A DNA stretch of 64,000 nucleotides from Iphione sp. A-MEVVRFRX5 (taxonomy: Eukaryota), in the NCBI GenBank assembly GCA_976226885.1, contig OZ320314.1, positions 106,950,001 to 107,014,000 of the forward strand, read 5' to 3'. The position numbers were made by a program, and so were the translations under genes. Position 1 is the stretch's first letter, and each line of letters begins with the position of its first letter. Below are positions 2,871 to 64,000 of this stretch, in pieces. Under the pieces are notes generated by a model. The model made no database searches and was not told the DNA's origin. It was given only the letters and a program-made list of their open reading frames with translations.

Positions 2871-4388
2871 CTAATTATGAAATACACATCATACATTTTG
2901 CTCCTGGAACTATAGTGATATAGGTATATAGTGACCTACTGTCTCAAGCCACCGTGTCTGTGATTTATTCAATAGGAAATGAAACTATGGCATATAGATA
3001 CTTGATATTCAAAATATAACAGGCTCATATGTTCTAAATGTACAGTGTGAAGGTTCTAGCTCATGTCTAAATAAACACTTGATTTATAAGCGGTTCTTTA
3101 AAGAATACTGGCCATCTGCAATTGTCAAGTATTGCTAGGACTAATTTTAAGTATCATTCATTAGATTATCATACCAATTGCATAGGTGTTTAATAATGAA
3201 CTATAGACATATGTTTTCTCTGGAGACCACAATATACAAGTTATTGAAAGATGTGTTGTAGAGATTAAGAGCAGATTGGTGTTTAGGGGCAGCACCAGCC
3301 TTAGCTAGCTGCTGTTTGCCCAAATCTATTCCATTCAAAACACTTTAATTTACTTATCATAAATGATATGAATTGTAAGCAACATTAAGGATGCGAGCTA
3401 GTCTACAGTGTAAAACTGCCACATCAAACCTTGCATAAACCGATGTAAAGCGTATTGTTTCCATGACAACTGGCAGCAATATATGATCATACAAAGATAG
3501 ACAACCCGTCTGATTAACCACTTAAACTTATTTGTAAAACGAAGAGAAACACTTTACTCCAAGATGCGAACATGTATGTTTTTTTTACCGGATTTGACAT
3601 TCGCAGACCAATCTCTATGAACCTAAAATGTACTGACAGGAGGCTACTCAACACATCCTAATGAACGCCTGGGTGGCACACACAGGACAGATTAAAGATG
3701 AGCGCCGAGACAATAGTCATGTCACAGCGTAGGTAATTAGTGAAGCTAGCTTAATTAGAGCTTTGACAGTGATGAGAAGCGCCACCTGCAGTTCTCGGCC
3801 GCCGATTTCATGCCAGTATACGAATTACCGCATTATGTGCGACTGTGTATGCTGTGTCTGCGAGTGTGTATCTGTGTCTGTGAGTGCGTGTGTATGTGTG
3901 TGCAAATATGCAAATAAATTCATTTCTCGAGTCGCTGAAGATAGCATATGTATATCATACGTACATCACGTCGTCATTATATCATACTATATAATCGGAA
4001 CTGTAAAGGGTTTATCAAATCCTCTGAATCATTCTGTGAATCACTCCAATTGCTATTGGTTTCTTCCTTAAGTGACTGGTGACCTGAACGGAATTTGTGG
4101 TTTATCCAACGAGAAGAGTAATACCTAAAGTGAAATATCATTCATGCTAAAAAGTAAACTAATAGCAGCATCACAATAGTCAGTCGTCAGAAAACAGATT
4201 ATGAAAATCTGCATTCCGGGACATGATTCCTCAAACCACTATCCTTCATCCCTCTATCCCGAATGGCTGCATGAACCTATCTATTACACCTCCTGAAAAG
4301 GCAATAACCACCCTGTAGTTGAAAGGTGCACGTGGAATTGCGTGAGTTAACTTCAAAAGACATTTTTCATCACAGGAGGTTTTTCCTG

Positions 4389-4438
4389 ATATATTATCTC
4401 TGTAAAGGACACAAGAGGTGGTGGGCTTAGAAGACTCC
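4389..4438 (-). repeat. Element 1 terminal repeat B2 (50 bp)
   Basis: Identical to 4608-4657. Confidence 0.95.
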
Positions 4439-4462
4439 TTTATTAAGAAAAAGGAAAAAGAA

Positions 4463-4657
4463 AAAATTTTAACAGCTGTGACGGTTATGAACAGATGGTA
4501 ACGTCATACAAGAACATTGTTGTCTTGGTGCTGTGGTTACCTTAGTATCATCTCCAAGGGAATCAACAGATATACATATATTATTATAAATATACTATTT
4601 ATAATCCATATATTATCTCTGTAAAGGACACAAGAGGTGGTGGGCTTAGAAGACTCC
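4463..4657 (-). repeat. Element 1 internal B1-A2 junction (A2 about 4463-4609, B1 4608-4657)
   Basis: A2 matches 8480-8626 and B1 matches 4389-4438; they overlap by AT at 4608-4609. Confidence 0.95.
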
Positions 4658-4666
4658 AAACCCCAA

Positions 4667-5683
4667 CTAAGGGTCAGAAAATAAGTTAGCATCACAGTCA
4701 AGCATAGAGTTAACATCAAACTCTAGATAATCATAAATACTTTTGGATTTCCAATCACCACAAAATCTCAACTCCTGCAAAGACACACCATGCTTAGAGA
4801 GAAAAGTTGCACCACCTCGTCTAAACGAATGTGATGATACTCCGACTAGGCCACAGGCCAAACACGCACTTCTTAATCTGTCTCTAAAGGTGTTATAAGT
4901 TAAACATTTAACATTTTTACCTTTCCTAAACGAAAAAATCAAATCGCTAGGTATAGGCTCGCACAAAATTTTCCATGCCTTGAGCCAAGTGACTACACAC
5001 ATGGCCTTACAACCACAAAAAGATAAAGGCACACATACCTCTCTCCCACTACCGCCGAGGGTCTTACCCCTGCAAATCCTCACCAAAGCTCCTCTTTTTA
5101 CAAACTTAACGTCCTCCCACCTCAGACCCCGGGGCGTGGTGTATAACTCCTTTCTCAAAAGGCAACGATAGGCCAAACTACAGGCCAACCAAATAATTCG
5201 GTCCCAAACAACATCCATTGAAAAACAACTAAACAGCGCTAACATATCATCAAGAGTCAAAGCCAGTGCTCGTTTAACTGGTCTGCTGTTCATACGCTTA
5301 ATACCTTTAAGAACTTCTTGTACATAAAAGTTCTTCTCATAATTAAGACTGTAACCTCTTGACTTGCAGTTGAAAACAAGCGCAGACAGATAATTCCTCA
5401 CCGAAGAATAACACATTTTCCTTGCTAAAAATGTGAGGTACATGCATAAATTAATCATACTACAAGGTAGCAGGGAAACACCTATGGAATTACAGAAGTT
5501 CCTATATGACTCCCACTGCGTACATCTCGCCTTCTTAGTGTTCTCTGCAGCTGAATTCTCCATCAATTTGGACATCTCCTTCAGCAGTGCCTCTCTCTCT
5601 CCTGCAAAGACATTGAAGGACTTCGCTACAACAACAAAAACTTCCCCATGGTGAATCGCATAGCTTTTCCAATATATTAACAT
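4667..5683 (-). CDS. Element 1 tyrosine recombinase (intact frame; true coding start may be the splice acceptor at 5601)
   Basis: Catalytic-type motifs CLLRK, RGKT, SHSFRRGGAT, GDW and IYDY. The ORF overlaps the RNase H end in the +1 frame. Confidence 0.93.
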   Translation of the reverse strand: MLIYWKSYAIHHGEVFVVVAKSFNVFAGEREALLKEMSKLMENSAAENTKKARCTQWESYRNFCNSIGVSLLPCSMINLCMYLTFLARKMCYSSVRNYLSALVFNCKSRGYSLNYEKNFYVQEVLKGIKRMNSRPVKRALALTLDDMLALFSCFSMDVVWDRIIWLACSLAYRCLLRKELYTTPRGLRWEDVKFVKRGALVRICRGKTLGGSGREVCVPLSFCGCKAMCVVTWLKAWKILCEPIPSDLIFSFRKGKNVKCLTYNTFRDRLRSACLACGLVGVSSHSFRRGGATFLSKHGVSLQELRFCGDWKSKSIYDYLEFDVNSMLDCDANLFSDP

Positions 5684-7592
5684 CGTACAATCTAGAGAGA
5701 CTATCAGCTATTACATTCTCTTTACTTGGTATATAATCAACAACAAATTGTATGTTAAATATACATGCTGTCCAAAAAATTTCTTTTAACCATCTCTGAC
5801 AACATCTATCTCTACTCCGCCCAGTTTTAAGCATATAAAGGACGCACATATTATCAGTGATGAGACGTACTGTACAATTTTTTAAAAGATGACACCATCT
5901 TTTGAGTGCAATAACTACAGGCCATAATTCAAATACGTTAATGTGCCTTTTATATTCGTCCTGACTGGGAACATCTTCATAGTGGCCAACCAAAATGTCT
6001 CGGGGGATGTTACAATTCTCCCACTCTCCAATGAACCAGTCATCGCACATATATCCACCAAACATACCTAATGATGAATCAGTAGTTATACATTCTGTTG
6101 GCTCTCTCGGATTAACAATTTTTCTTTTACCATTGAAAATGTTTATGAAAACTTGCCACCATTTAATTTCACTCATTACAGCTTCATCTAATTCTTTTTT
6201 CATTTTATAATTTACAAAAGAGTTAGTGAACTCATACAAACTCCTCGTAAACGTGCGACCACCTTTCACCACTGTCGAACAATGAGCAAGCAAACCGGTA
6301 AGCTTTTCCATATCCTTCTTACACACTTTCTTTGCTGACAACACATGGTTTATCTTCACTTTTGTTTCTTCCACTTTGCTCAAAGGAAGTCTCAACTCAA
6401 GCATACTTGAATCAATTTCAATACCCAGAAATTTACAAATAGTGTTAGGTTCAGTTACTTTTTTGATTGAAACATCAAAACCAAAGTTACTTATTACTTT
6501 CATCATAACTTCCTTATAAAAGTCACATTCATCATAGCTTTTACCCACAACAATAAAGTCATCCAGGTAATTTACAGAAAAACCACCGCATTGACATTCA
6601 AATTCCCCTTTGATTACATCTGAGATTACAGAAAAAATATAAGGTGCACATTTCAATCCAAAACATAGCTAATTGTTAATGAAGTATTCTTTACCTTTCC
6701 CTAAATCCCAAGAGAAACCTTGAAATTCTCTATGCCCGGGATACACTTGGACACTGCGATAAGCATTCTTTATGTCAACTACCGACATAAATTCATCACC
6801 TTCCAGAGCATAAGCAACATCATCAACAGAATTGTACTTAAACGCATGGTGGGTAGAAGACATAAAATTGTTAATACTGCTGCCCTCAGGCATAGAACAA
6901 TCAGTTATCGGACGGAGTGATCCATCACTTTTCTCTACTCCACCCATAGCGTTTACACATCTAGGTTTTGACTCACATCGAGAAATAAAACCCTGATCAA
7001 GCTCAGTAATTAATTTTTCTGTCATCTGTTCAGAAAAATCATCTGTGAGAATAGATAAGTAGTTATTACAGTCATAGGAAGTATTACATTCTTCATCAAC
7101 AATTCTGAAGCCTTGAGTAACACCAGACCAAACTAATCTTATTTTTTCTTCACATAACTGGCTGCAACACAACGCAAATAACCAGCGGCACGGCTTCAAC
7201 TTGCATTCTACACCACCTATAGCATAGTTACAAGCACAACTACCTAGGATACATTCCCGGTACTCACGAATGATGGCATCACCATCTTCATCCTTGCCAG
7301 TTACCACGTAATTTTCTAGCATGCCTTCCTCTACTGAAATCAGATTCCTAAGGCATGACTCAAACATTTTCATACGATAGAAAACAACATCTTTTTCATG
7401 GGGGTGCTCTGCGTAGCTCTCATCATGACCTATCGTCACTATGCTCTCCTCGGTTGAGCAACTACTATTGTCCGCATCCAGAAGCTCAACATCGTCAACA
7501 TTATCTGTAGATAGAACAAATCTATTATTCAGTTCAATCACAAATACCTCGTTGTTGTATCTCGAAGACTTCTCAGCGGATGAAGCACACCG
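5535..7592 (-). pseudogene. pol: Element 1 pol (RT-RNase H) with one in-frame TAG at 6669-6671
   Basis: Motifs KSDGSLRPITDCS, DIKNAYR, FGLKCAP, NYLDDF, FLGIEIDS, TDSS, INVFELWPV, TDN and NVIADSLSR. ORFs 6669-7541 and 5535-6656 are in the same frame. Confidence 0.92.
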
Positions 7593-8452
7593 TCAATGTT
7601 GTTTTGACGTCGTCTTCATCTTCCTCGACTCGTCTCCATCTACCGGTTTAGAAGCAAAACACTCGTACGCTCTATGTCCGCCAGAGCTGCAATTCAAACA
7701 CTTATGCTGATAAATACAACTACTGTCGCTGCATTCGCCTGCATTATATTTGAAGCAAATTTTTTCTCCCTTCCACGACTTCTTCGAGGTCTTGTTCTTC
7801 GCAAACCCTGTCGTTGCATCCACACCCATATATTTATGGATCGCTTCGGTGTCGCCGTAGCTAAACGCACTCGTTCCTTGATGTGCTGCCCTTCTTCTCA
7901 ATTCTGCATCATAGCTCACCAACGACTTGATACTGTAGACACGAGTCGAGGCTTTTGTGGCCAGGAAGGACAAGTGCTCCACGTAAGACGAGACATCCTT
8001 CTTCTTCTTAATCATCTTCTGCAGTAGGCCTAATGACCCAACCATTAGGTGCTCGAAGCTCGAGATGCTGTCTTCATCTGTATAACGGATAATATCATAC
8101 TTCTTCACCCTCTTACCCTGTTTCTTTTCTTCTTCCTCTCTAGCCTCTTCTTCACCTCAGCATCTTCAAAATCCGAATCGGAAAAATCGTCTTCATCACT
8201 GCTAGAGGAAGAAACCGAGGAAACACTTCTAGAAGGTGACTTTCTCTTCTCTTTCTGCTTGTCGCCTTTGCTGTTCACCAATGCCTCCATCAGCGACTCC
8301 AACCTCAACAAACGGCCCTTAACGTCATCTCTTGGATTATCTGGCTGCTTATCAGCATCACAATGTCCATCAACGTCATCTTGAGGTAACGAGCAACCTT
8401 TTCCAACTGGAGGCGGATGGTTGACTTTACATCTCTTGCAGTATTTACCCAT
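7593..8452 (-). pseudogene. gag: Element 1 gag-like ORF1 with one frameshift near 8120-8135
   Basis: N-terminal CxxCxxxH-x7-C (CKRCKVNHPPPVGKGC) and C-terminal CCCH+CCHC fingers (CFKYNAGECSDSSCIYQHKCLNCSSGGHRAYEC). It aligns with the continuous gag of element 2 if one A is restored in an A-rich run. Confidence 0.85.
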
Positions 8453-8479: not shown

Positions 8480-8626
8480 AAAATTTTAACAGCTGTGACG
8501 GTTATGAACAGATGGTAACGTCATACAAGAACATTGTTGTCTTGGTGCTGTGGTTACCTTAGTATCATCTCCAAGGGAATCAACAGATATACATATATTA
8601 TTATAAATATACTATTTATAATCCAT
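8480..8626 (-). repeat. Element 1 5' repeat A1 (147 bp)
   Basis: Identical to about 4463-4609; TATAAA on the minus strand at 8615-8620. Confidence 0.95.
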
Positions 8627-11347
8627 GTATACGACGTTTGTAAACCATTTATTTCTCCCTCATTCTTGTCTCCTCCTCCTCCGTTTGTTGCAATTATCTC
8701 CTATTATTTTACGTACCATAAGTAGTTATGTTTCGTTGTTGTCCCTTAGCGGGTTGTAGTTTCTTCCTTTCACCCATCTTGCTTCTACGTTGAAACCTAC
8801 AGCTAAGGATAGGACGTGGACCAGTTAATGGTTTCCTGAGCAGGGAAAATACCAATGAAGTAGTCATCTGTAATATATTTAGCGCCAAACTAAAGCTATA
8901 GAACAATTCACTAAACACAACTTTACGCCATTAGGCTGTTTACTGTTCGTGGAAGATTTCCTGTAAAAAGACGTCATTTTTACCAGGAATCAGTGGTAAA
9001 ACGTTACAAGGCTGCAACCACCTTGCGAATTAATGTAGAAAGACAAGCTATAGCTCATCTTCTTCCTTAGATCCTTTAGTTTCATATGAAGTTTGTTGCG
9101 TGAAAATCGGGCAATTAAGAGTCGTGTTCTTTGCTTGAGAAGGCAGTTTTCCTTAGCGTTTTACACATGACAGCCAGCAGAACGTAAACACTGTCGTCGG
9201 TTGACCTATGTCATTCACATAATCTCATTGGTTGCCACTAAGTTGTGGTATCATATCGACGTTGGTTAATCAAAATTGGACTAGCCTCCCAGAGATGCAG
9301 TCCAGCTGAAACAAAACACGATCAGGCACACACGTGGAAATACCAATATATTTGTCTCATATGGATTAATTTATAATGCCTCGTTGAATGAGTGTGCATT
9401 GGGAACTATTGCTAGTGGTTATTCCAGCAATATTTGATGACTAGTACCTTAAGAGGTGCCTCCGCAGAGAGGCGATCGCTAGGAAAATCCCGACTTTAAA
9501 GCAAAAAAGTCAAAAGATTACCTCATTAAAATCTGGTCTAAATTCACAAAATAAATCGATAGATCAACTGTTTCATCAACTAGATTTGTACGTAGGTTGT
9601 TTATGGGGGAAGAATATCAAAGATTCCGATGGGAATGAGACTGAAATGGAAACGACTACGGTTCAAGTTGACAAAAAGACAAAATGTTCTATGTGATAAA
9701 AGACTAAAAACCGACATAGTATCATTCCAAAAAGGAGCCATCTCAGCCCTTAACCTGATTCTATAAATGTGCACTGATAAACCAACGATTTTCTGGATCT
9801 ACCTAACATTTTACCTTGTTATGTGTTTCAAACCTAACCCTTTCTCTAGAGACATCTTGTTAATGATGGCATATTTCTCTCGGTGATGCTCCATCCAAAC
9901 CACTTGGTGAATATGTGTAAGTTAGGCTGAGAGAGAATGTCAACAGTTCATCAAAAAATAAGTCCGACCCAAAACATGTCGCTAACCTTAAGTGTACTGG
10001 GTGTCCGTTTAGTCAAAGACATTCATTCCCGTTTAAGTATCTGATGGTTAACCCTTCTTCACACCCTCACCCCCTACGACCACCCACCCCCCTGTCAGGG
10101 GGAGGGGAGACTGTGTCGTCACTGGATGGGTGGGTGGGAGCCGCGATACGTGCACTGTCGTCGGGATTTGCTTCACCTACAGATCCGCAGCAACTAGTGT
10201 TGGCGCTTACATGACTAGCTTAAATGGAAAAAAACCTAGTATCTGGTATCTCTACTTATGATACTTTGTCCCGGTAGTTCTGTCTTCACATTAGTTGGTA
10301 TATTTTATTGGTAACACTTGGTATCTTTATCCATTGCAGGTAGAAAAATTAATTTACCTTCATCAATTTTGCCGAAAAAAACACAAACGATTAATATCTT
10401 TATTATGGTACAAACTCAGAATTATGATCAACCTTTGGAGCAAGTAATTTTGCCATCTACACTGAGCTTCCCTGCTACCTATATTGGTTGTGGTATAAAA
10501 GATAAACCATTGGGACCAGTCGAATATATGAATTGAATACAAACTCATGAAGGTAGCCCTTGCACCATCCTGGTGGAAGAAAACTACGGGGAGTCTTCAT
10601 TTCACACATCAAAAAAACGCATTCAACAAAAGATATTCACGTACGCCCCGCACCGATGGAAGCAGTTCTGGGCACTCACATTGGCCATATTTCCTCACAA
10701 TCATGCACCAACATGCATGCCACTCATGGAAACATCGCTTTGCTTTGAGTACAAACTCACTTCTTGGTAATGCACACTTTCAGTGTGCAATACAGCAAGC
10801 TATAAGAATGACAAGTATTCAACAAGTACACAGTAAAACCGCACCATCCAGGTTTAGTAGAAAGCTAATCATACCATTTACTTTTGACATCCGACCAAGC
10901 GGCAAGAAAACAGCTGCATAAATGGACGATGCCAGAAGAAAGCCACTTGCTTGAGCTTAGTTGTTGTCTATTAAATTTTCAGCAACCAACAATTGATACA
11001 TTGCCATGTGACATGTTAAAATGATGTACGCCCATAATACCTGTCAATCAAAATGGTATTTGGCCAATGATGCAGTGTAGTCAATATCACATGTCACAAA
11101 TGTCCAACAACATTTCAGACAACATTTCATTGACGTCGTCACTCATATGTGCCAGGTTTTGTCTTGAATGGAAACACATCAGTTCTCCTGTGAAAAGAAT
11201 ACAGAACTGTGATGTTTCTGAGTAGAATTTTTTTTCTATTTTAACATTCTTTGTGACCATGTTAAAATTATGATTATCACAAGTCATTAATTATGCGATT
11301 ATGTCTATATGTAGATATATATCTATTGGAACATTGTAATGAATCAA

Positions 11348-12039: not shown

Positions 12040-14640
12040 GCTTGTTTGATTTTGACGGAGCATGATATACTATGCGAGCAGCTCAATTCGGAGAAGTTTT
12101 GTTGTAAATGTGACAAAAAAACACGTCTCTCCAGCCAGTAGAAAATATAGAAGAGTATCCTCTATACCTGATGAGGCAGTTAAATCAAAGAAACTGATTT
12201 TTCAGACGATTAAGAGGTGAACAAGCGATTTGAAAATAAAACAAGTGCATGCTGAAGGTTTTGATGTTGACGAGGGCTGATACAAGTTTGGTGCCCGTGA
12301 AGAAGACTACAGATGCAGATGAGTGCTCTACCAATGATAGTTTGTCATCCTCAGATGATGGTTTTGGTATAGTGGATGATGACTGTCAGATGTCATAGTA
12401 TTGTAAAAATTATAACTCTAATTTGAATGGCGAATCTAAGAAACAAATGAGTCGAAAAATAGAGTCTGAGGTGATGGAAGGTTTATTACTGAATGTAAGG
12501 AAAAGCCTCATGGTGTGAATGCTTTTTGGGGGGGGGTCCCAAAAGGTGATGGAAGCCTGCATCCTATAACGGACTGTTCTATGCCCCAAAACATTTTGAT
12601 TAACAATTTTATGAACATTACTCACCAAGAGATTAGGTATCATTCAATTGATGATGCAAGTAATGTACTAGAGTTAGGTGACTGGACGAGCACATGTGAC
12701 ATTAAGAGTGCCTACCGTTCTGTCGTGCTAAACCCTAATTATCATCAATTTCATGGTTTCAGTTGAGAAGGCACAGATAGTATATATATATTTTATGTGA
12801 ACAATACATTATGTTTAGGTTTAAACATCTTCAATGAAATCTCTGAATTTATTGTATCAGAGCTCAGGCATAGGTGTGACGGTTTAGTAATTAACTACCT
12901 AGATGATTTTATTGTGATAGCTAGTACTGAAAATAAATATGATGACATGCAACATGCATTGAAAGAAGTTATCAGTGATGTTGGTTTCACAGTGTGTCCC
13001 ACCTACGAGACAATGTTAATTTTTAGGTATCGTAGTAGATTCAGCTGAGATGGAGTTATCCCTCCCTAAAGGGAAAGTAGTGAGTGTGAAGTGTAAAATC
13101 AAGGAGGCCATTGAGAAGGGAAAGTTAAGGAAAAAGGAGTTTGAAAGTTTGACCCACTCCCCGTCACACTGTGTTTCTGTAGTAAAAGGAGGCCAAAGTC
13201 ACACAAGGAATCTATAATGTGATGAAAGAGTTGAAAGGAAGTAAAGAAACTGTAACCATTAATGAAGAAGTTATTGGGGATTTGAAGTGGTGGTTAAAAT
13301 TTATCAGTATTTTCAATAGTAAGAAGTGTATAATCAAAACCAGGGCAGTCTCAACTGTAACTGACTCTTCCTTAAAAGGGTTTGGTAGGTGGTTTGACAG
13401 AAACTGGTATTATGGAAAATAGGACAGTGAGATTTGACTTATTGATTGACCATCACCTCGAGACTCCACCTACTTTTGATGTATTTGACAAATACATTAA
13501 TAATTCTGAACTTTGGGTTGTCATGCTAGCGCTAAAAATATACTAAGATAGTGCTCTTCCCTGTGGATAATTAATAATCAGTATTATATATGCTGAGAAT
13601 GAGTAGAAGTAGAAATAGGCCTTGTATGAGAGGGCTTTGTGAAATTTTCTGGTGCTGTGTCCTGAGGAACATTGTTTTCAAAGTAGAATATATTTCTTCT
13701 GAGAGCAACTACATAGCTGATGCCATCTCAAGGGCCTATGATATACAGATTGTTAAAAGACTGTTGGATGATCTTTGGATCTGTCATGCATGCTGTGGAT
13801 ATAAAATCAAATTTATTTGCAGAGAAACTCTGGTGTCTGAAAAACGAGACGTCCATGCTGAAAGAGGAAGCCACATCAAGTGACACGAAATAATGCAGGA
13901 AACTTCAATTACAGTGATAATCAGATGATGCTCTTCCCTTGTAGATCATATTATGATCTGATCAGTTTTCCATGCTCATCATTTCAAGCTGAACTTAATT
14001 CAACGTATCTTTGCAGGGGGATGTGTTATAGCTCAATTACAACTACCTGTCTGGTCTTATTTATGGGTGTTTTGAAGTTATTTCACCAAGTTATGACGAT
14101 TTCAGTATTTCTCAAATTTTATCCGGTTTAAAAAGGTGTACTGATAGAAAACTTGTTTGTGCTCATGCCTTGACCCTGTTGCATTTAAAAATAATTATTG
14201 ATATCTCATTCTGACGTATTGGACCAGTTTTGCTGGTTAGCATGTATTGTTGTCTTCCGTTGTTTATTAAGGAAACAGATTTTCACCTCAAGTGATGGCT
14301 TGAGGTAGGGTGATTTTGAATTTTGCGATTTGAATGTAAACACCTATGTATGCAGAGGAAAATGTGTATCTTCTTCTTTGTAAATCTTATCAATTTTGTG
14401 TTGTGTCTTGGCTAAAAACTTGGCAAGTGAGACACCATTTGAGTGATGATCAACTTTTCTCATGTATCACTATTTTCTCATGTACACAATGGTAAAACTT
14501 TGGTCGTTGGTATATTTGCCTACAATTCATAGCAACCTCCTTATACAGTGGAACTAGAGCTCATAGTGGAGGCACAGTGAGTATAGTATGTGCTTCGCAG
14601 TTCAAATGGTAGTATATTATTCTTAGATAAGAGTTCACGA
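12040..14640 (+). mobile_element. Element 3: decayed, internally deleted Ngaro-type YR retrotransposon
   Basis: Remnants occur in order: gag start (KFCCKCDKK/HVSP), RT (PKGDGSLHPITDCS, DIKSAYR, NYLDDF), RNase H (TDSS, NYIADAISR) and YR (CYSS, WLAC..FRCLLRK, CVVSWLKTW, AHS-GG). Many stops and frameshifts; no 3' repeats found. Confidence 0.88.
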
Positions 14641-15044: not shown

Positions 15045-15393
15045 TTAGTGTAAATAGTTCTTGATATAGGACTGCATTGATATGTAAAATTTACATAAGC
15101 CCAATAGCATAGTTGAAACCTGATGCTTGGTCGATTACTCTCTAGCGCCCAAACCTACTATTATTACAAAAACGCTCATTGCCTATGACTACCATGGTAT
15201 CTCTCCAGGAAACATACTTAGTGTAAATAGTTCTTGATATAGGACTGCATTGATATGTAAAATTTTACATAAGCCCAATAGCATAGTTGAAACCTGATGC
15301 TTGGTCGATTACTCTCTAGCGCCCAAACCTACTATTATTACAAAAACGCTCATTGCCTATGACTACCATGGTATCTCTCCAGGAAACATACTT
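15045..15393. repeat. Near-perfect tandem duplication, unit 173-174 bp, 2 copies
   Basis: Units start TTAGTGTAAATAG at 15045 and 15218; the only difference seen is one extra T. Confidence 0.9.
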
Positions 15394-18300: not shown

Positions 18301-18654
18301 ATATGGGCCCTGTGTGGTCAATAAAACAATCTGCACTTGGAACTACTGAGTAGAACTTGTTGATCTGGGGATGCTAAGCAGAAAAAATCCACTTGGACCC
18401 AAGGGTTGACACTTGGAAAAAACTTCTACGTAGCAAACTGTTGTAATGAAACAGTTTGACAAGTGATAGATACATATCGATTAGAGGGCTGTATGCGATA
18501 TATTGTCACGGTAGGGATTAGCACGAGGCGCACCCGAGTGTGTAGCCCTGCTGTGACAATGTATCAAGTACAACCCTCTACAAGGTATGTATCTCACTTA
18601 AAGTCATGGCTCCTCTCCCTCTGTTGCAGTATTACAGTGTTACAGAAGGAAAAC

Positions 18655-18885
18655 AACAGGTAATAGACAGCTCTACAGAGCATTACAGGGTACACACAAC
18701 AGGTAACAGAAACCTCTACAGAGCATTACAGGGAACACACATCAGGTAACAGACACCTCTACAGAGGGTTACAGAAGGCAGACACCACAGGGAACAGACA
18801 CCTCCACAGACAGTTACAGTGGGTTACCGGAGACCTGTACAGGGAGTAACAGTAGAGACACAATAGGTAACAGACATATCTACAA
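18655..18885. repeat. Degenerating 43-bp minisatellite
   Basis: A(A/T)CAGGTAA unit starts at 18655, 18698 and 18741, then decays. Confidence 0.75.
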
Positions 18886-18909
18886 CATATGTCCACCAAC
18901 TACAGTCAG

Positions 18910-18985: not shown

Positions 18986-21072
18986 CTTGTTCAGTTGTGA
19001 TTGGGAGTGGTTTAAAGACAATTATGGGCCTGTCATGGTCTCATACCTACAAACGCTAATCCAAACAATGACTTTACGCGGTATATTAGCACACTTTGCC
19101 ATATAGGCCTAAAGAGAAAAAAAGATGGCCGCCATGCTTTAATACAGTTTAACACATATTCTAATTTCAATGGAAAATGAACTTGAGACTACTCATGTAG
19201 ATTGTTTCAAACTACAGGTATCATAAATAAATAAGCATTTATGTCAAGAATATGAACAAAGCATTGCTCTGCAGTTATACTACTTGCCATACAGATTATA
19301 ATAAGCTCCCGCTTAATTAGACAGATTTCATGAAAAATCAATGTAAAAGTGCAAAATTTGTAGATATGAAGTAATATCAACATGACTGAAATCATTTAGT
19401 ACACACTATAAAATATATAACGCATTGTAAAACCTTCTATCGGCTACTCAGTCTAACAGGTGTTCATATGAAAAGCACTATGAAAGTCTATGATCTAAAC
19501 TGACAGCTTGGAGACGATTATCAAGCGATTGAAAGCCAGAAATTCTGTGCATTGCTTTTGATCAGATTCAGATACAAATAAATACCATAAAAATCAAGAT
19601 CAATTGATAGATGTTTGTATTGGTACTTCGCAGGTGCCCGATGTACATCAGATGGCTTTTTATGTCGGAGTACTGGAGTACTTGCATTTCTATTAGGACT
19701 TTTCTTATACAAATAATTGTCTCTGTTTCAGTCCTTCGTTGGTGGAAATAGACCCTCTGGTGAGTACCTATATCCTCTACCTTCTGTTAAGGCTTCTCTT
19801 GTGCTTAGAAAAGACACTGAATTTAGTCTTCAAGCAGTTTAGGTGACCACGGCATCCGGGAAGGACAGACGTGACTATTGTTCATCACATCCACTGAGTA
19901 TTAGGCCGGGCTGAGAGAATGCGTCTTCAATGTTGCAGGTCTTGCGGCAGTGGTAAAAGCCCTGGCTGAAAAGTGAGGGGGGAAATGAGAGGCGAAAAAA
20001 ACTGTGTTTCTCATACGAAACATATCAAACATATCAATTTTGTTCGTAGTCGAATATAGTGTGTTCATGTCTGTGCAAATTGCTGAAGGACCCACTGACT
20101 AGGTGGATGAGGGTTAAAATGCAAGTGTAACAAGACACAAAACAGAATTTTATTCATAGCAGTGGACCCGTTGTGCAAGCCATCCAGCTACAGTGCAGCT
20201 TTTCCTGACAGCATGGTGGTTGCTGCATCACTTAATTAAATCCCTGAATTTGGAACATTCTCAACATATCGGCTGCAGATAGGTTGATCAGATCGCGGAA
20301 TTATGAAAAATGCCGTCACACTTATCCTATGTGGCAGAGGTACTGGCACAAGAGGCTGAAGGCCTACTTTTAAGATGACGCCTATTGGGCTGTAGTAGTA
20401 CATTCTCAGAATTCTCGTCTTCGCCATCGACAAGCGTCACTGCACAGATGTTAATGCTAGATGTCATGACGAAACCCATCTCACACTGGCTCTGGATGCA
20501 GTGACTGTTCATATGGCCTTTTTAAAATCAACAGCTGCACTGGATGCAATGTAAACGAAGTGACGTATAGGAACTGTCGTGATTGTCTGCCGTATTCATA
20601 TAATCCATTCATATATCTTTACACTGTACATACATGCGGGCCTCACTGTCTGCAAAACACAATGAAGCATAAAAGAGCTGTGGAAACCTTGCTCTAAAAA
20701 GTCGCCTGAAATGGTATAACCGTGCATGCATGTTCCTATATCATCGATATTTAAGTCTGGCTTTAGATCAAGCTGAAACACCATACCGCATACCGCTTAT
20801 AGAAACCAATGAAGGCATTTCGGAGCAAGTAGGACTGTATACTAGACATAGAGTACATAACTTGTAGACTGTATATCCAAGGGGAAGCGTTGATGTTTAC
20901 AAACAAGGAATTGAACTTCAGGAAGTTTGCAGCAATAATAGACTTCGCAATACTTGGATATCACTCCACAAAGGAAAATTTTATCTATATGTGCCCGCAA
21001 GCCACAGGAGTACATAGCATGGGACTATTTCGTTCTGAAAGGAGGTCTGGCATCAAATTGATATTTACTCAG

Positions 21073-22119
21073 ATGTATATGAGCAAATTCCAAGATATAA
21101 AAGGATACATTGCTGGTATTGTTGCAGGTCTACTTGATACTGTTACAAATGCATCTGCACAACTGCTCAATGATACAGTGCCTGTATTTCAACTTTGTTT
21201 CGGACGTTTATTTTGTCAGCTTCTTCTCTGTGCAGTGTATCTATTGTTAGTAAGAAATGCTAATCCCTTTGTGTATGGTTCACTAGTAAATGTACCATGG
21301 TTAATACTGACATTTGTTTTTAGTATGGTAACAAACATATATTTTATTAATGCCGTTTTCTACTTACCAATAGGAACCTTTTCCTTTTGTGTAATGGTAG
21401 GACAGTTATCATTTATCTCGGTCCTGATGCGTACCTTGTTTCACAAGAGAATCTCATCTTTTCAGTACATATGTTTTTTGTTTATTGCCGTTGGGGGTTT
21501 TCTACTTCTTCAGCCATTGCCTCATTTTCACCGCAACATTCACATGAATTGTTATGAAGTTCCTCAGCTTAAGCTCAGGCTCAACTTAAGCAGCTCAATA
21601 GACCATACATCAAATATCACTCCAAGAACTCCGACACAAATAGCCACTATAAAACAAATGAGCATTGGTGTCATTTTCGTCATCATTGGAAGTGCCTGTT
21701 CAGCTGGACGCACTGTCGTATTGCACAACATCCTATGTGAAGTACCAACAATTGTAATTAACTTTTGGGGCGCTACTTTTGGTTGTATTAGCATGCTACT
21801 ACTCCTGCTGTATATGGATGAACCTGTTGTTCCCCACAGCACAAGGGTTGTGTTCCTCATACTTGTATACAGTTTCTCAACCTCTTCTATGTCTATGACG
21901 TTTGTGTATGCTACACAGATGCTACACCCTGTTGCTTGTACCCTCCTGCTTAACATGTCTTGTGTATATAGTTTTATACTGCAAAATATTTTTCCTTGTG
22001 TCCTTATGAGTGGATATCGAAACATAGGTGAAGTGGTTGGGGCCGTCATTATATCTGGCAGCACAATTGCCTGTACCTATCTATCTCATATCCAGCAGGA
22101 TAATGTGCTCTTACATTGA
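21073..22119 (+). CDS. Intronless EamA/DMT-superfamily transporter, SLC35G-like (ORF open from 20890; start ATG uncertain)
   Basis: About 349 aa with about 10 hydrophobic segments in two repeats (VPVFQLCFGRLFCQ..., YLPIGT..., LFHKRIS..., GEVVGAVII). AATAAA at 22392-22397. Confidence 0.8.
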   Translation: MYMSKFQDIKGYIAGIVAGLLDTVTNASAQLLNDTVPVFQLCFGRLFCQLLLCAVYLLLVRNANPFVYGSLVNVPWLILTFVFSMVTNIYFINAVFYLPIGTFSFCVMVGQLSFISVLMRTLFHKRISSFQYICFLFIAVGGFLLLQPLPHFHRNIHMNCYEVPQLKLRLNLSSSIDHTSNITPRTPTQIATIKQMSIGVIFVIIGSACSAGRTVVLHNILCEVPTIVINFWGATFGCISMLLLLLYMDEPVVPHSTRVVFLILVYSFSTSSMSMTFVYATQMLHPVACTLLLNMSCVYSFILQNIFPCVLMSGYRNIGEVVGAVIISGSTIACTYLSHIQQDNVLLH

Positions 22120-29930: not shown

Positions 29931-31770
29931 GTTATATTGAAAAATGTTGTCTTAACTTTAGTTAAACTTCAGAGAAATTATTTGCTTGAAAATATTCCAT
30001 TTATGAACCAAGGTTGTAAAAGGTTAAGTAAAACCACTTCACTAGTTGTACCAAAAACAATGTCTTTCATTGTTAGTGAATTGTCCGTGTATTAGCCTAA
30101 AACGGTGGAACAATCTACAAAAAAAACAAAGCCAAGGTCATGCTAAGATAGTTCAGAAAATGTATTCAGTTTTGATTATTTATGTTTCTTATGTTTCTTG
30201 TTTCTTTTGCATTAATTCTGTATTATTTCTATAAATGTGTGTAAAAGCGTAACAAAAATAGATAAAAAATGGTTTGATTTATGACATGTAAATATGCTTT
30301 GTAACTTCTACATAATCAGTAAGCAACCACATTTGGTCACATACAAAACAGTCTGTTTGTTAGTAATGAGCTGGACTAACATTTTCCTTCATACATCGCA
30401 TGTTGAATCTATTGTTTTCTCTTGTTTTTTTCTCAGTCTTATTCAGAAGAACATTTACCCTTATTTTAAAAGATATCTGAGATAAAATAAGACTGTCACT
30501 GCAGCCAGACCGGCGCACATAGACAAGGTGTTTTTGGGGTCATTTGATTAAGTTGGGTTTTCTATCTTAACTGTAAAATTATTGAGCGGTAATTTTACGT
30601 AGTGATCACCAGTATTCTATAACTTAAGGATCCAAAACATTAAACCAAATTAACATTATAATAATAGATTTTTAATTGCAGTTAATTCCATTAGTAGTGT
30701 TAGATTATGCAGTATGAAGTCTTATAAATTCTTTTCCTGAACACATTTTGCTATTCTTTCCTGATTATATTAACTATGTCCATCTCATCTCATATCATTT
30801 CCAAGAACTGTGTTGATACCCAAGCTGGTTACAAAACATACATTGTATACTGATCCAGTGAAAATAAAGATTAAAAAAAAAGACTTAACACTCTTCTTCT
30901 TACTATTATTATTTTATATGTGTTATTTTGGATGGAGATCCATATAACAATGCATTTGTACTGTCCCTACTGACAGTTTACTGAAATAACTGCATATATA
31001 ATCAGATAAAATATCTTACTATATCTTTTTTTACCGAATGTGATTTAATAATTTTGCCTTTGAATCTATCAATTACCTTTGTAATAGGATGAAAGGAACG
31101 TTTGCTGGAATATTTGCTTCATCTACTCTCTGACCACAGTCTTGAGCCCTTTTATCCTCAGGCATAAAAAAAGGAATGTGATTCCATTAACATTTTGAAA
31201 AATCATAATGTCAGTGAGTCGGTGTTTTTTTTCTCTCACAGGAATTATAAAGTTAAAAGCCTACACATCACCTACTTATCATATTACCACCACTTCTCTT
31301 GCTTGGATCTTAATGACACATATATCAATATGAATGCTAGAAATCAAAGGAAATATTTTGATACATTGTATAAATCTGTAGCTATATCCAGTCCACAAAT
31401 ATAGGCAAAAATATTATAAAACAAAAAAGTCCAATAGGCCAAATATAGGGTCAGTCGGGTTACTGGAAACAGATTTTTTTTATCAGGCCTTGGGAGACGT
31501 TCATCCTGAACTAATGTGCAGGAGGACATTGGCTGCCCTGGGTAGGCCATACAATCAGACTGTACCATCCTTCGTCCCTGATTTGTTTATCTATGAGAAA
31601 TGAACTGATTATTTTCGTATTGATATATGAGTGAATTTGCTAATCACCCCTACCAAGGTGGCACACCGTGTTTAAAACTGTTTTATAATGTTCCCATTTG
31701 GTTATAATGCAAACAACCATTTTAAGACGTTTTATTATTGTTTCTTCTAACATTTATAACAGGAAGACAG

Positions 31771-31985
31771 CCAAGGGTGGGGGCAAAACTTAAGAGATCC
31801 GGGGACTTCTGAAATGGACAAGAGGTTGGTCAAGGGTGGGGGCAAAACTTTAGAGATCCGGGGACTTCTGAGATGGACAAGAGGTTGGTCAAGGTTGGGT
31901 AAGCACTTGTAGAGGTGTGGGGACTTTCGAAGGCGACAGGAGTATGGCCAAGGACAGGGGTAGCACCTGTAGAGGTGAGGGAATG
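31771..31985. repeat. GC-rich minisatellite, unit about 59 bp, about 3.5 copies
   Basis: CCGGGGACTTCTGA recurs at 31799 and 31858; later copies diverge. Confidence 0.8.
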
Positions 31986-32418: not shown

Positions 32419-33228
32419 TTTACAACCCTCAGTTCTGCTTGACTGAACACAGGGGTGTAGGAATACACCTAACTGAAAAGGTAGTCCCAAGTAGCACACT
32501 TTTTCATTTTCTTTGTTTAGTTTTTTGTGTATGGGACATCATATATCATTCTATATCATTTTAAAAAGTATGACCAGAAATATATGAAAAATAAACAAAT
32601 TATATGACTTTAAAAACATCTCACAACAATGAGACCTCCTCCCCATGGCCAGACTACTTTCGAGCAACGTTTTATAGGGGTAGTGTAAAAAGTAACTGAA
32701 TTAACTGCCAAGGTAAGCAGGATTCTACATTCTGTTTGAAGTGAAAATACATGCAGATAAACAGTATTGTACTATTGAAACATCTTAACTTCTTAGTGAT
32801 TGATAAATTTGAATCAACATAAGCATTGTATATCTATAATATAATCTTAACCAAAATGCTAATTATCTCGATGTCTTTGCGTGAATAAAACTAACATTGT
32901 GTCTTGTATAGGAATGTACCCCTTTGTCCCGCAGGTGCCACTAAAGCCCTAGTCGGCGTGTTGTTACACTACCTATATAAAACGTTGCTTGAAAGTAGTT
33001 CGGCCATGGGGAGAGGTATCATTGTGGTGTGATTTTCCAGATTTACCTTATTTTTGATGCTGATTGATCCATGAGGATATTTTAAAGCATGACAGAGATA
33101 GTTATTCACCTTTAGTGTATGTAAAATGCTTATTACTAAAAACATATGACATATGTAGCCCTACTTTCTACACAGAGTGCTGTATTCCTACCCCCTCTGT
33201 TCAGTCAAGCAGAACCAAGAGTTGTAAA
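32419..33228. repeat. About 49-bp imperfect inverted repeat pair 0.7 kb apart (possible non-autonomous DNA transposon)
   Basis: 32419-32467 is the reverse complement of 33181-33228 with a few mismatches. CTGTACTTTGACCCCT also occurs directly repeated near 32363 and 33242. Confidence 0.6.
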
Positions 33229-36438: not shown

Positions 36439-36493
36439 ATATTGAAGGAACGTGACAAACACACAAATTGGGGGTTTACACACAATTTCTGGC
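36439..36493 (-). repeat. Element 2 terminal repeat B2 (55 bp)
   Basis: Identical to 36667-36721. Confidence 0.95.
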
Positions 36494-36513
36494 TTTATTC
36501 ACTTCACAAAGAA

Positions 36514-36721
36514 AAAATTTTGAAGCAAAGTGGCGGTTGGTACTAAAGACATTCCATTCTACATGGGACGTCATCACAGAGCTAAGCATATTGCTGATGT
36601 TGGTAGGGTTACTGGAATACAGCATAATGGTTCCCAAGCAATATCCACATAAATACTTTATATGGCATATTGAAGGAACGTGACAAACACACAAATTGGG
36701 GGTTTACACACAATTTCTGGC
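36514..36721 (-). repeat. Element 2 internal B1-A2 junction
   Basis: A2 36514-36670 and B1 36667-36721 overlap by ATAT. Confidence 0.95.
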
Positions 36722-37688
36722 CAACCCCAAGGAGGAAGAAAAAACATAATCCTGCTTAAAAAGCTGTTCATCAACACATCTAATGTAAGAGTAAACAGCA
36801 TCACTCTTCCAACCACCCCTGTCCCTTATAGCATGAAGAGGTAGACCAATCCGAGCCATATGTGAAGCACCAGCCCGTGTGAGGTAACTCTCCCAATAAC
36901 TCCCCCTAGCTTGCTATAATGCTTAAGTGAAGCTTGAACCTCTCGTACTCAAAGAGACAAATAACACCTCTCTTCGAATATGAAAAAATTGGATCACATG
37001 ACACAACCTTAGTCAAGGAAAAAACCAAATTAAGCCAATACAATAAGCAAAACCTTTTATCACTACATTCAGAAATAACCAACTTCCTTGGATTCTCCCC
37101 AAACTCGTCAGTCTTCGACCTACGAATCATGACAGAAACTCTGTCACTACCTAAGACCACATCACTCCTCCTAATAACTGAATCGCCAGTATACTGACAC
37201 TTCCTAACTAGACATCTAAAACCAAGAACTACTGCACACCAAAACAGGTATGAATACAACTTTGAAAAATCCAAAACATCATAAATTCTAACTAGATCCT
37301 CCACTCGAAGGCCTTTAGAAACGTGGCTAGTAAAATATGCTGATCTCTTCAAACCAGCCACCATCCACCTAACAACAAAATCCTGTACATCAGGAAAGCT
37401 CATACCCTTACGTTTATGCTCATAAATCAAACCACTCAAGTAATTCGACACTGAAACTGGTGCCATAGAAAAAGACAAATATGCACAATATCTTCTGAAC
37501 TGTAGTTGACTACATGGAAAGGCCACTAAGTTGTACTTTTTACAAAAACCTCTATAAACTTGCAGTTGCCTCTCCCTTGTCCTGATGGTGTTGACAGAGA
37601 AAGCAGACGACTTGAGAGACTCAATCCGATCATCCAAACATCTAATCCGACCTGAAATCAAAGAGACACTCCTTACAACAGGCCTCAT
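36704..37688 (-). pseudogene. Element 2 tyrosine recombinase, disrupted near its 3' end
   Basis: Open to 36906 (FRCLVRK, RRSKTD), then a frameshift. VTSHG has lost the LRR of the HxxR motif with a second shift; GGWKSDAVYSY follows and the frame ends inside B1. Confidence 0.9.
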
Positions 37689-39588
37689 CCAACCATTCGG
37701 TCCATCTCACATCATCACATCTAATTATTCCATCAAATCTAGACAAGCTATCTGCTACAATATTATCCTTGGTATTCACATACTCACAAACCAATTTGAC
37801 ATTGTGCACCATGCATGACCAGAAAACCTCTTTCAACCACCACATACATCTCAGGTTTACACTTCTCCCCGTCCTAAGCATATACATAACTTAAGTGTTA
37901 TCGACCATAAACAACACTACTGAACCTCTCCACATCTGGCCCCATCTCTTCAGAGATATCACCACTGGCCATAGCTCCATCACATTGATGTTCTCATCGA
38001 CATCCTCCATTGAAGGCTTTTGTTCCAGATGACCACAGCCAAGACCATCCAGAACATCAACCCACGAACCCAAGAACCAGTCCTTGCCACAAAAACCTGC
38101 AAAGCCTTTGAACGATGAATCCATGTAACACACAAATGTAGGGTCACTCAATTTCATGATTTTACCTTCCCCATTGAAGATCCTCGAGAATGACCTCCAC
38201 CAGCTCAAATCCTCCAAGACGAGGGCTTCCACCTTACATTTCCTGTTATTCCTTGGTAAATGCTCAACCTGATCATAGAGACTCCTGCTGAAAGTCCTAC
38301 CACCGCTTATTATTGTCGAGCAGTGAGCCAGATAACCTGAAAGCTTCTCTCCTTCCTTCCTAGACATTTTGCCACTCACTAGAACATCATCAAGCATATT
38401 ACCCAGCTTCTCTAATTTCCCTTCAGGCAGTCTCAGGCGCATACAGATAGAATCAATCTCAATACCTAGGAACACACAGCAAGTGCTCGGGACTGTAACC
38501 TTCTTCCAAGATACATCAAAGCCCAAGCCCTCAATGATGCCTGTCAACAGATCCCTATTACGTAAACAAGCTTCATACGTCTCTCCTACCACCAAAAAAT
38601 CATCTAAATAGTTCACAATACCTGCATCTGACACCCGCCTATAATTCTCCACTACAAAATCGGATATTTGCGTGAATATATAAGGGGCACACCTCAAGCC
38701 AAATGTAAGCGTGTTATTCTCGAAATGCTGCTTCACACCATCCAAAACCCAAGAAAAACCTTGGAAACTCCTACAACCTGGGAGAACCGATACTGAACGG
38801 TAAGCATCGCTTATGTCAACAACTGCCATATATGTGCCAGTCTCCAAAAACTCACACACATCCAAAACCGAGTTATAATTAAACTCTTTAAACAATCCTT
38901 CCATGAAATTATTGATAGAGATACCATCAGGCTTAGAACAATCTGTAATCGGTCTTAAAGACCCATCCGACTTGGCAACCCCACCCATAGCGTGCACACA
39001 CTGGGGGACATGGTCTACCCTCCTTACAAAGCCTTGAGCCATCTCACATCTAATTTTTTCCGACATTTCCCTTCGAAACTGGTCCGTATCCAATGACTTA
39101 TAGTTCTTACAATAGTATGAATTACAAAAATCATCATTAACAATTTTGAATCCACAACAGACACCGGACCAAATATATGATCTCATCTCTAGGCTCTTGA
39201 ACCCAAAAGCACAACCTTTGAAAAACCTGCATGGCAGCAATTTACATTTCACACCATCCAACATGTGACTACAGTTACATGAATTTAACATACATCTCTC
39301 ATAAATATCAATGACTGTAACACCATTGAATACCGAATATAACAGATCTTTCGCTACCTCAGCGGGGTAGGATATTGATGCTTCATTCACAACATCACGC
39401 CAATCAATCAACAACCACTCCATACTATCTGTTGCAATCTCATTGAAAATATCACCCAACATAGCATGGCGATCCTCAGTCTCATCCACAACCACATAGT
39501 AAGAGCATTCAACATGGTCAAAACTTGGGAAGACAAAAATCTTCCCCACGTTCACTGTATTGCACCCAACAGGCACAGTACCATCTAG
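37642..39588 (-). pseudogene. pol: Element 2 pol (RT-RNase H) with one in-frame TAA at 37891-37893
   Basis: Motifs KSDGSLRPITDCS, NYLDDF, MDSS and INVMELWPV. DNT*VMYML is probably CAA>TAA of DNTQV; NIVADSLSR follows in the same frame. Confidence 0.92.
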
Positions 39589-40536
39589 TCACTTCTTGCT
39601 CACTTTCGAATCCTTACTTTTATCCATATTGTTGACATTTGCGGGACACTCATAAGCCTTGTGTTCGACTGAACCACACACCAGACACATGTGTTTTAAG
39701 TTACATGAATGATCATGGCATGTACCATTGTTAAAGCGGTAGCAGACCTTATCTGATTTACGACCATCAAAAGCTTTCTTCGATTTAGTTTTCTGCTGGC
39801 CACTTCTGCTATTACCACCCGTCGTCTGAACCATCATATCAAAGCTAAAATGACTGCGAATTAAGTCATCATTGCCAAAAGTAAAATATGAAATACCTTT
39901 CATCTCGGCTTTCTTACGGATATCATGGTCATAATCAATGAACGATGCATCTTTATACATGTTTTTAACGCGTTTTTCAAGCATAAACAGGATGTGATCA
40001 AGGTAACCGGAAACACACTTGCCTCTCTTCAGGTGCTGCTGTACCAATTTGACCGATCCTAGCATCAATTCATCAAAATTACTAATTTTCTTAACTTTCG
40101 CCGCAGAAGTCACATTAAAGTCCTTCTTCTTACCACTTGACTTTTTCTTGCGACTCTTAACAGCAGAATCTTCATCCGAATCATCTTCTGACGAACTCTC
40201 ATCAGAACTCGATGATGAAATGCCAGGCTTCTCCTTGGAAACTGCATCATGTTGCCGCTCCCCAGACATTGATGAACTCTTATCACCATTCGATGCCAAA
40301 AACATCGCAAACATGTCTTCCAGACGGCCCATACGGGAAGACAAATCCTGGCTATCACCATTACCATTACCATTGTCAGCCGACAAACCACAACAAGTAC
40401 CATTCTCCTCAGAAACACCATTAAATTCAACGAAATCCTCCGATGGGCCCATATCGGCCACCTGGAAAGCCATACGACAATTCTTCCCAATGGGGGGGCT
40501 ATGCCTCCTTCTACACTTTGAACAATGTCTGCCCAT
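39589..40536 (-). CDS. gag: Element 2 gag-like ORF1 (intact; ATG at 40536)
   Basis: N-terminal CSKCRRRHSPPIGKNC, an acidic Ser-rich tract, and C-terminal CYRFNNGTCHDHSCNLKHMCLVCGSVEHKAYEC. Confidence 0.9.
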   Translation of the reverse strand: MGRHCSKCRRRHSPPIGKNCRMAFQVADMGPSEDFVEFNGVSEENGTCCGLSADNGNGNGDSQDLSSRMGRLEDMFAMFLASNGDKSSSMSGERQHDAVSKEKPGISSSSSDESSSEDDSDEDSAVKSRKKKSSGKKKDFNVTSAAKVKKISNFDELMLGSVKLVQQHLKRGKCVSGYLDHILFMLEKRVKNMYKDASFIDYDHDIRKKAEMKGISYFTFGNDDLIRSHFSFDMMVQTTGGNSRSGQQKTKSKKAFDGRKSDKVCYRFNNGTCHDHSCNLKHMCLVCGSVEHKAYECPANVNNMDKSKDSKVSKK

Positions 40537-40607
40537 CCTCGATAGCAAAGACACAATGCTCAGAAGAGGCTAACGAAGCACACAGCAAAGGTACGTGTTG
40601 ACTCGTC

Positions 40608-40764
40608 AAAATTTTGAAGCAAAGTGGCGGTTGGTACTAAAGACATTCCATTCTACATGGGACGTCATCACGGAGCTAAGCATATTGCTGATGTTGGTAG
40701 GGTTACTGGAATACAGCATAACGGTTCCCAAGCAATATCCACATAAATACTTTATATGGCATAT
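40608..40764 (-). repeat. Element 2 5' repeat A1 (157 bp)
   Basis: Matches 36514-36670 with two substitutions; TATAAA on the minus strand at 40751-40756. Confidence 0.95.
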
Positions 40765-63629: not shown

Positions 63630-64000
63630 CCTTACCAGGATGATTTCATATTAGTAACTCAATTACAAGGCTCTTCAGTTAGCCCACATGGCCACGAGTT
63701 AGTATGTGTTTTCTAACCAAATGTCCAAATTCTTGGGTATCGAGGTAGATTCGAATGCAATGGAGCATATGTTACCTGGGGGGAAGCTAAAAGGTGAGGG
63801 AGAAAGTGGCAAATGCCACAAATACGGGTAGTCTGACTAAGCATGAGTTTGAAAGCCTGCCCTGTTCGCTCCCGCACTACTCCACAGTTGTAAAAAGTGG
63901 TAGAACTTATACCGGAACCTTCTATGACATGTTGAAAGCGTTGGCTAGGCCACGTAAGCCTGTACCATTGAGTGATGATGTTCTCCAAGATTTCTGGCCT
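63630..64000 (+). mobile_element. Element 4: decayed Ngaro-type pol fragment running off the window end
   Basis: YQDDFILV, KFLGIEVDSNAMEHMLPGGKL, HYSTVVKSGRTYTGTFYD and LSDDVLQD align with the pol of elements 1 and 2. Confidence 0.8.

Follow-up and report, generated by a model that had tools for sequence, protein, structure and literature searches.

A probable splice acceptor opening the tyrosine recombinase frame of a Ngaro-type retrotransposon, and a candidate donor within gag

Introduction

How do tyrosine-recombinase (YR) retrotransposons express the recombinase, and how do they bring it to their cDNA and target? The papers covered here leave both points open in the portions available, and the questions are raised by an element, E1, in the genome of Iphione sp. 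A-MEVVRFRX5 (GCA_976226885.1, contig OZ320314.1, 106,950,001-107,014,000; this stretch of 64,000 nt is the window below). E1 lies on the minus strand, its parts are given in window positions, and its gag and pol (reverse transcriptase, RT, with RNase H, RH) open reading frames (ORFs) are followed by an intact YR ORF that sits +1 to pol, as the first-pass annotation of the window had noted. That annotation had proposed that YR is translated from an mRNA joining the gag ATG directly to the YR frame. We find that some splicing to the acceptor it named, 5602|5601 (vertical bars mark exon boundaries), very probably occurs, and that a different donor, 8117|8116 in the middle of gag, has about an even chance of being the one used, in which case the recombinase would be made as a fusion to the N-terminus of Gag.

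Under this proposal a single promoter would yield three E1 proteins. Unspliced RNA would give Gag and, via readthrough of a TGA stop, Gag-Pol; a spliced RNA, from which the Gag core and all of pol were removed (~2.5 kb, 8117|8116 to 5602|5601), would encode a product of ~420 residues, with ~110 N-terminal residues of Gag joined to the complete Cre-like recombinase. The Gag piece would be the source of the start codon for YR, and may also tether the enzyme to the Gag particle, bring it into the nucleus, or steer target choice. The two sites, their phases and their recurrence in relatives, like the intact YR itself, can be read directly from the DNA; the splice, the choice of donor and the role of the Gag piece we infer from them.

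An acceptor at the start of the recombinase frame

The E1 acceptor, GTCTTTGCAG|GA, has its AG at 5603-5602 and opens the exon at 5601. Scored with approximate, self-made weight matrices in place of a trained tool, it ranks first among the 50 AG sites in 6100-5450 and third among the 249 in 8452-5450. DNA was at hand for three further elements: (i) E2, a second Ngaro-type element of the window (36439-40764, minus strand), with a pol 46% identical to that of E1; (ii) E3, a decayed third element (~12340-14460, plus strand); and (iii) L002 (JBEVXT010000237.1), a full Ngaro-type element with a GDSL hydrolase ORF, the sole confirmed element among 37 stretches from a genome scan, which lies on a contig of a bacterial metagenome-assembled genome record and is probably a eukaryotic carry-over in that assembly. 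The E2 acceptor, TTTCAG|GT at 37652|37651, ranks 1/47 locally and 3/222 element-wide, E3 retains TTTGCAG|AG at 13822|13823 (rank 3/55), and L002 has TTTCAG|AT at 3499|3500 (rank 2/49 locally). A phase-1 YAG acceptor thus opens the YR frame in four of four elements, and in E1, E2 and E3 it stands 11 codons before profile position 1. Two observations count against a functional site: the L002 acceptor falls below the top 6 of 360 AG sites when the whole element is scored, and no clear branch point was seen near the acceptors.

A phase-1 acceptor lying in the YR frame is expected to leave a footprint in proteins read from that frame, namely a residue with a pyrimidine codon, then S/P/T/A (codon NCA), then G/D/E/A. 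A profile search gave 150 YR representatives; 163 proteins from outside the window were scored, 124 of which reach the YR start, with records of transcript and DNA origin taken together. Where at least 17 upstream residues were available, 23/35 homologs carry the footprint, against 9.6-9.7 in shuffled and internal controls (maximum 20), and the patterns for phases 0 and 2 are at background (5/35 and 14/35). When at least 14 upstream residues were required and P0076, P0125 and P0132 were dropped, the count was 26/41 (shuffles 8.2, maximum 17, 0/2000). A widened pattern that allows TAG acceptors, set after the strict result had been viewed, finds 39/41 (shuffles 19.1, maximum 29).

Several points about these homologs weigh against our interpretation. 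The footprint patterns, though derivable from the genetic code, were written after the N-termini had been inspected, and with at least 20 upstream residues required the strict count becomes 9/18, which 23 of 2000 shuffles reach. Only 3/124 homologs have more than 60 residues upstream of YR, and the long extensions of P0125 and P0132 join pol-like, not gag, sequence to it. Finally, 36/124 records have their first residue at an offset of -9 to -13, recorded as M in almost every case; a GTG/TTG start may have been rewritten there, or these homologs may truly have a start codon of their own.

The YR frame could also be reached with no splicing at all, either by reinitiation or by a +1 ribosomal frameshift near the pol end that would give a Gag-Pol-YR polyprotein. 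All four elements have YR +1 to pol, in L002 and E2 no more than ~15 nt separate the pol stop and the YR start, and P0132 is a single RT-RH-YR record, either natural or a gene-model artefact. Yet a frameshift leaves unexplained both the pyrimidine-rich YAG|G site of the four elements and the homolog footprint, which is confined to phase 1; the acceptor itself makes up the 14 nt that separate the pol stop of L002 from its YR exon; and readthrough followed by frameshifting would presumably yield very little enzyme. We consider this route improbable. A -1 pol-YR frameshift was rejected, given the +1 relation in four of four elements. By its local rank, its recurrence in relatives and the homolog footprint, the acceptor at 5602|5601 is well supported as a real and widely shared site, and the annotated proposal of a recombinase made from an mRNA spliced to it is probable.

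Start codon and fold of the recombinase

If YR is a 3' exon, what supplies its start? E2 reaches its first in-frame Met at codon 63 and L002 at codon 80, and only 5 of the 39 footprint-bearing homologs have an early one, so that YR would need a start supplied from upstream. The predicted model of E1 YR from the acceptor onward (predicted local distance difference test score, pLDDT, 95) places its first helix at residues 2-15, and its best PDB matches are Cre/Tre (template modelling score, TM, 0.76-0.79). As modelled, the exon past the acceptor is a complete Cre-like enzyme whose fold begins exactly at the acceptor. The Leu at -6 (Leu6 of E1) is retained in 36/39 footprint-bearing homologs.

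E1 itself departs from this pattern, with in-frame Met10 and Met14 in its YR, and this bears against the need for a Gag start. Translation from either Met would suit a non-coding first exon, ending for instance at the donor AAG|GTAACC in repeat A (8558|8557, rank 2/69), or a transcript from an internal pol promoter; that would be the true env arrangement of murine leukaemia virus (MLV). P0066 and P0090, with a Met directly after the footprint, agree with such a start, as do the 36 records beginning at -9 to -13. The early Met is, however, missing in E2, in L002 and in 34/39 homologs; a Met10 start would lose the conserved Leu6, which lies upstream of it, and half of the first helix; the constant phase 1 would be unneeded behind a non-coding leader; and an ATG at 8568 would run into the pol frame across an 8558-5601 junction. 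A non-coding first exon thus appears quite unlikely.

Candidate donors

The donor proposed by the first-pass annotation is present in the DNA. On the minus strand the gag ATG (8452-8450) is followed by G (8449) and by GTAAAT from 8448, and removal of 8448-5602 (2847 nt) gives a phase-1 join to 5602|5601 that opens 310 YR codons. Use of this donor would yield a bare recombinase, and the E1 copy would still be YR-competent. The gag ATG stands in a strong context, and a minimal first exon has a precedent in the springer subclade, where the env splice is described as starting at an AU dinucleotide (PMC12992720). A donor can be particular to one family, and 8449 and 8117 may both be usable. Splice-site scoring, which bore out the annotated acceptor, did not favour this donor: G|GTAAAT ranks 5/69 among the GT sites of E1, and when the M-G-K-Y start was redrawn synonymously 20,000 times, 54% of the draws held a site at least as good, so that for the protein encoded here the site does not exceed chance. 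At the same position E2 reads ATG G|GC AGA C, a GC of poor consensus, and L002 reads ATG G|CG. The annotation had named loss of this GT as evidence against its model, and the GT is missing from both other elements with a readable gag start. This weakens the ATG-adjacent donor, which we regard as weakly supported, without overturning it, since E2 and L002 are other families and not E1 copies. E2, whose YR requires a coding first exon, would have to rely on another donor or on the weak GC. Overall, splicing from directly behind the ATG seems unlikely.

The stronger candidate, AGG|GTAAGA at 8117|8116, ranks 1/69 in E1, and a counterpart in E2, GTG|GTAAGA at 40134|40133, ranks 2/90. Both are phase 1 in gag, both follow acidic and basic tracts, and their distances to the Gag core agree within one codon. 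GGTAAG codes 2/2 donor-site Gly-Lys pairs versus 1/16 others (Fisher p = 0.02, with sites picked after viewing). In L002, too, the three top-ranked donors of gag are internal and phase 1. The CxxCxxxH(7)C motif of the E1 Gag N-terminus is also found in E2 gag, at residue 5.

Against the mid-gag donor, sites this good arise in 24% and 25% of redraws given the residues (~6% jointly), and only two elements are involved. In L002 the corresponding position past the basic tract lacks a GT, and towards the gag end of E2 lies a phase-1 donor, 39618|39617, that is slightly better than the mid-gag one. P0076, the RefSeq model of Patella vulgata LOC126807879, speaks for a fusion in that YR is preceded there by ~140 residues, modelled with low confidence as a small helical domain and a disordered linker, but Atlas, PDB and pairwise comparisons did not show this extension to be gag; a search with the P0076 N-terminus among 1101 candidates returned only itself. 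None of 515 candidates matched E2 Gag at E <= 0.001, which leaves no further gag of this clade to compare at the donor. An Atlas search with residues 1-134 of E2 Gag gave only scores below 0.8, the chance level, and a plasmid search gave one unrelated protease/RT element only.

The E2 site at 39618|39617 raises the further alternative of a donor near the end of gag, producing a nearly full-length Gag-YR fusion, or of donors that vary freely among families. It is the best donor of E2 and is phase 1, and the best donor of L002 lies within the Gag core (1053|1054); the top 12 donors of E1, on the other hand, include no phase-1 site near the gag end. We take this to be very improbable.

The preferred mid-gag donor has a consequence for the E1 copy. 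Its gag frame breaks between 8156 and ~8118, upstream of the donor, and because of this the copy would make no YR by the mid-gag route, leaving its intact YR silent by that route. The view that this copy can still make YR would then fail, as reading from the ATG crosses the junction in phase 0 and meets a stop after 6 codons. A programmed -1 frameshift at the break was considered and rejected: E2 gag is one ORF, and no slippery heptamer was seen by eye.

Gag-Pol readthrough

In all three readable junctions (window 7595-7590 and 39591-39585; L002 1539-1544) pol continues the gag frame beyond a TGA that has CGG or CTAG behind it. TGA-CGG (E1, L002) and TGA-CTAG (E2) we take to be readthrough contexts. 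This suggests that readthrough is the usual Gag-Pol route in the group, and makes plausible the stop readthrough that had been annotated for E1.

Comparison with known systems

In MLV, Gag-Pol is made by readthrough of a UAG stop, the splice donor is located upstream of the gag start codon, and env is translated from an ATG of its own. E1 would share with MLV the stop readthrough and a spliced third gene, env in the virus (PMC10309623), and differs in its TGA stop and in a YR exon that usually lacks its own Met; the 'MLV-like' programme of the first-pass annotation survives only as a loose analogy. Closer to the proposed fusion is CERV of the Caenorhabditis elegans element Cer1, made from a spliced mRNA whose first exons, in the gag frame, are joined to a distal ORF; Cer1, however, is a Gypsy/Ty3-type long terminal repeat element, and the five-exon CERV acts as an RNA-export factor instead of an integration enzyme (PMC10309623). 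Drosophila errantiviruses also express a third gene from a spliced subgenomic RNA, with the env donor, depending on subclade, within gag or at the AU dinucleotide noted above; there the third gene is Env, and the integrase is kept in Pol (PMC12992720). Cre resembles E1 YR in the fold that is complete past the acceptor in our model, with ~20% sequence identity; unlike Cre, E1 YR is retroelement-encoded and probably carries an N-terminal Gag piece.

Nearest in kind are the Ngaro-like YR retrotransposons (order DIRS), which share with E1 the A1-[gag, RT/RH, YR]-B1A2B2 layout, the HxxR and Tyr residues and the lack of a visible methyltransferase (PMC8547959, PMC9210276, PMC13465315); their hydrolase ORF, optional in the group, is missing in E1. 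These descriptions, in the portions available, give three or four separate or overlapping ORFs and state no expression route for YR. For Cafeteria, ORF1 of Ngaro elements is reported to appear to determine integration-site specificity (Hackl et al., PMC8547959), which would fit a Gag-YR fusion, other explanations also existing.

The splice logic, with Gag-fusion mRNAs of the Cer1 CERV and idefix env type, is thus already known from Cer1 and errantiviruses, and the literature searched held no case in which a YR retrotransposon applies it to its integration enzyme. That search found no spliced YR in DIRS/Ngaro elements, and the founding Ngaro descriptions, later reviews and Repbase, which lay outside it, may note such a splice. 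Introns have been mentioned in some YR retrotransposons.

Implications

A broader, tentative reading, which we hold possible rather than probable, is that animal Ngaro-like YRs are not stand-alone ORFs but 3' exons of spliced mRNAs, expressed as chimeras with the Gag N-terminus. The variable Gag N-terminus would then be an exchangeable module for packaging and targeting on a Cre-like enzyme. In elements with a hydrolase ORF, that ORF may serve as another alternative 3' exon of equal phase, as L002 suggests. If so, the ORF1-dependent target choice of Cafeteria Ngaros would be explained, and most database YR proteins of the group would be N-terminally incomplete. A real fusion would tie Gag to target choice, change the annotation of the ORFs and indicate which form of the protein to express. 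Recombinase-competent copies would also have to be recounted, since YR would be silent, even with its ORF intact, wherever the gag frame is broken upstream of the donor, as in the E1 copy.

Concerning the hydrolase ORF of L002 (4471-5022), we observed that it opens at a phase-1 acceptor, 4489|4490 (rank 1/32), with an in-frame ATG five codons upstream; a stronger acceptor lies at 5093|5094, and the two may serve alternative 3' exons.

Element layout and other features of the window

By the structural definition of Ngaro elements (PMC8547959, PMC9210276, PMC13465315), E1 is a Ngaro-type YR retrotransposon. It has the split direct repeats A1-[ORFs]-B1A2B2 and, on one strand, the ORF order gag-like, RT/RH, YR (Table 1), with matches to RVT_1, RT_RNaseH and Phage_integrase, and its YR keeps the catalytic R, HxxR and Y residues. 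No gag Pfam family exceeded the cutoff in E1, and gag was assigned by position and Cys/His fingers. No methyltransferase family was matched in E1 at E <= 0.1, and pol ends ~50 residues past the last RNase H motif. A PAT-like assignment was rejected, as the methyltransferase domain that characterizes PAT (PMC7192593) was not seen, and a DIRS-like one because the element is bounded by direct repeats only. E1 pol is 25% identical to the pol of the hydrolase-bearing L002, and the YR tree covers unnamed hits only.

Table 1. Parts of E1 in window coordinates, 5' to 3' along the element
Feature	Position	Strand	Details
A1, split direct repeat, 5' end of E1	8480..8630	-	151 nt, 150/151 identical to A2; presumed promoter/transcript start
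gag start codon, strong context, followed by candidate donor G|GTAAAT (8449|8448)	8443..8452	-	ATG 8452-8450, G 8449, GTAAAT from 8448
N-terminal portion of Gag, read from the ATG: CxxCxxxH(7)C motif, amphipathic segment, Ser/Asp/Glu tract, Lys/Arg tract	8105..8452	-	frame stop 8107-8105 in the E1 copy
Preferred candidate donor AGG|GTAAGA (8117|8116), phase 1 in the downstream gag frame, directly before the conserved Gag core	8111..8119	-	rank 1/69
Gag core and C-terminal Cys/His finger, second frame	7593..8156	-	38% identical to the uninterrupted E2 gag
TGA-CGG at the gag end, followed by pol in the same frame; probably a site of readthrough	7590..7595	-	TGA-CTAG in E2, TGA-CGG in L002
pol (RT and RNase H)	5535..7592	-	interrupted by TAG at 6671-6669; no methyltransferase seen
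Candidate acceptor with a run rich in pyrimidines and GCAG|G (5602|5601), phase 1, within the last pol codons	5601..5617	-	
Tyrosine recombinase exon, 310 codons past the split codon	4667..5601	-	R150, K180, H258, R261, W284, Y292 intact
3' repeats B1 (4657-4608), A2 (4613-4463), B2 (4438-4389)	4389..4657	-	AATAAA 4444-4439 between A2 and B2; B = 50 nt

In E2 the split repeats measure 157 nt (A) and 55 nt (B); its gag is an uninterrupted 315 residues, its pol has an in-frame TAA at 37893-37891, and its YR is broken near 36908-36877. A short ATAT-like core is common to the element ends and the B1/A2 junction (8630, 4613-4608 and 4389 in E1; 40764, 36670-36667 and 36439 in E2), as expected for recombinase-mediated integration of a circle. 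A further RT fragment (63715-63994, plus strand) runs off the right edge of the window.

Elsewhere in the window, an open frame of 428 codons (20833-22119, plus strand) has no match to any E1 protein. We also note a near-perfect tandem duplication of 174 nt (15045-15393), a 43-nt minisatellite (18650-18890), a 59-nt tandem repeat (31759-31981) and an inverted-repeat element (32615-33036).

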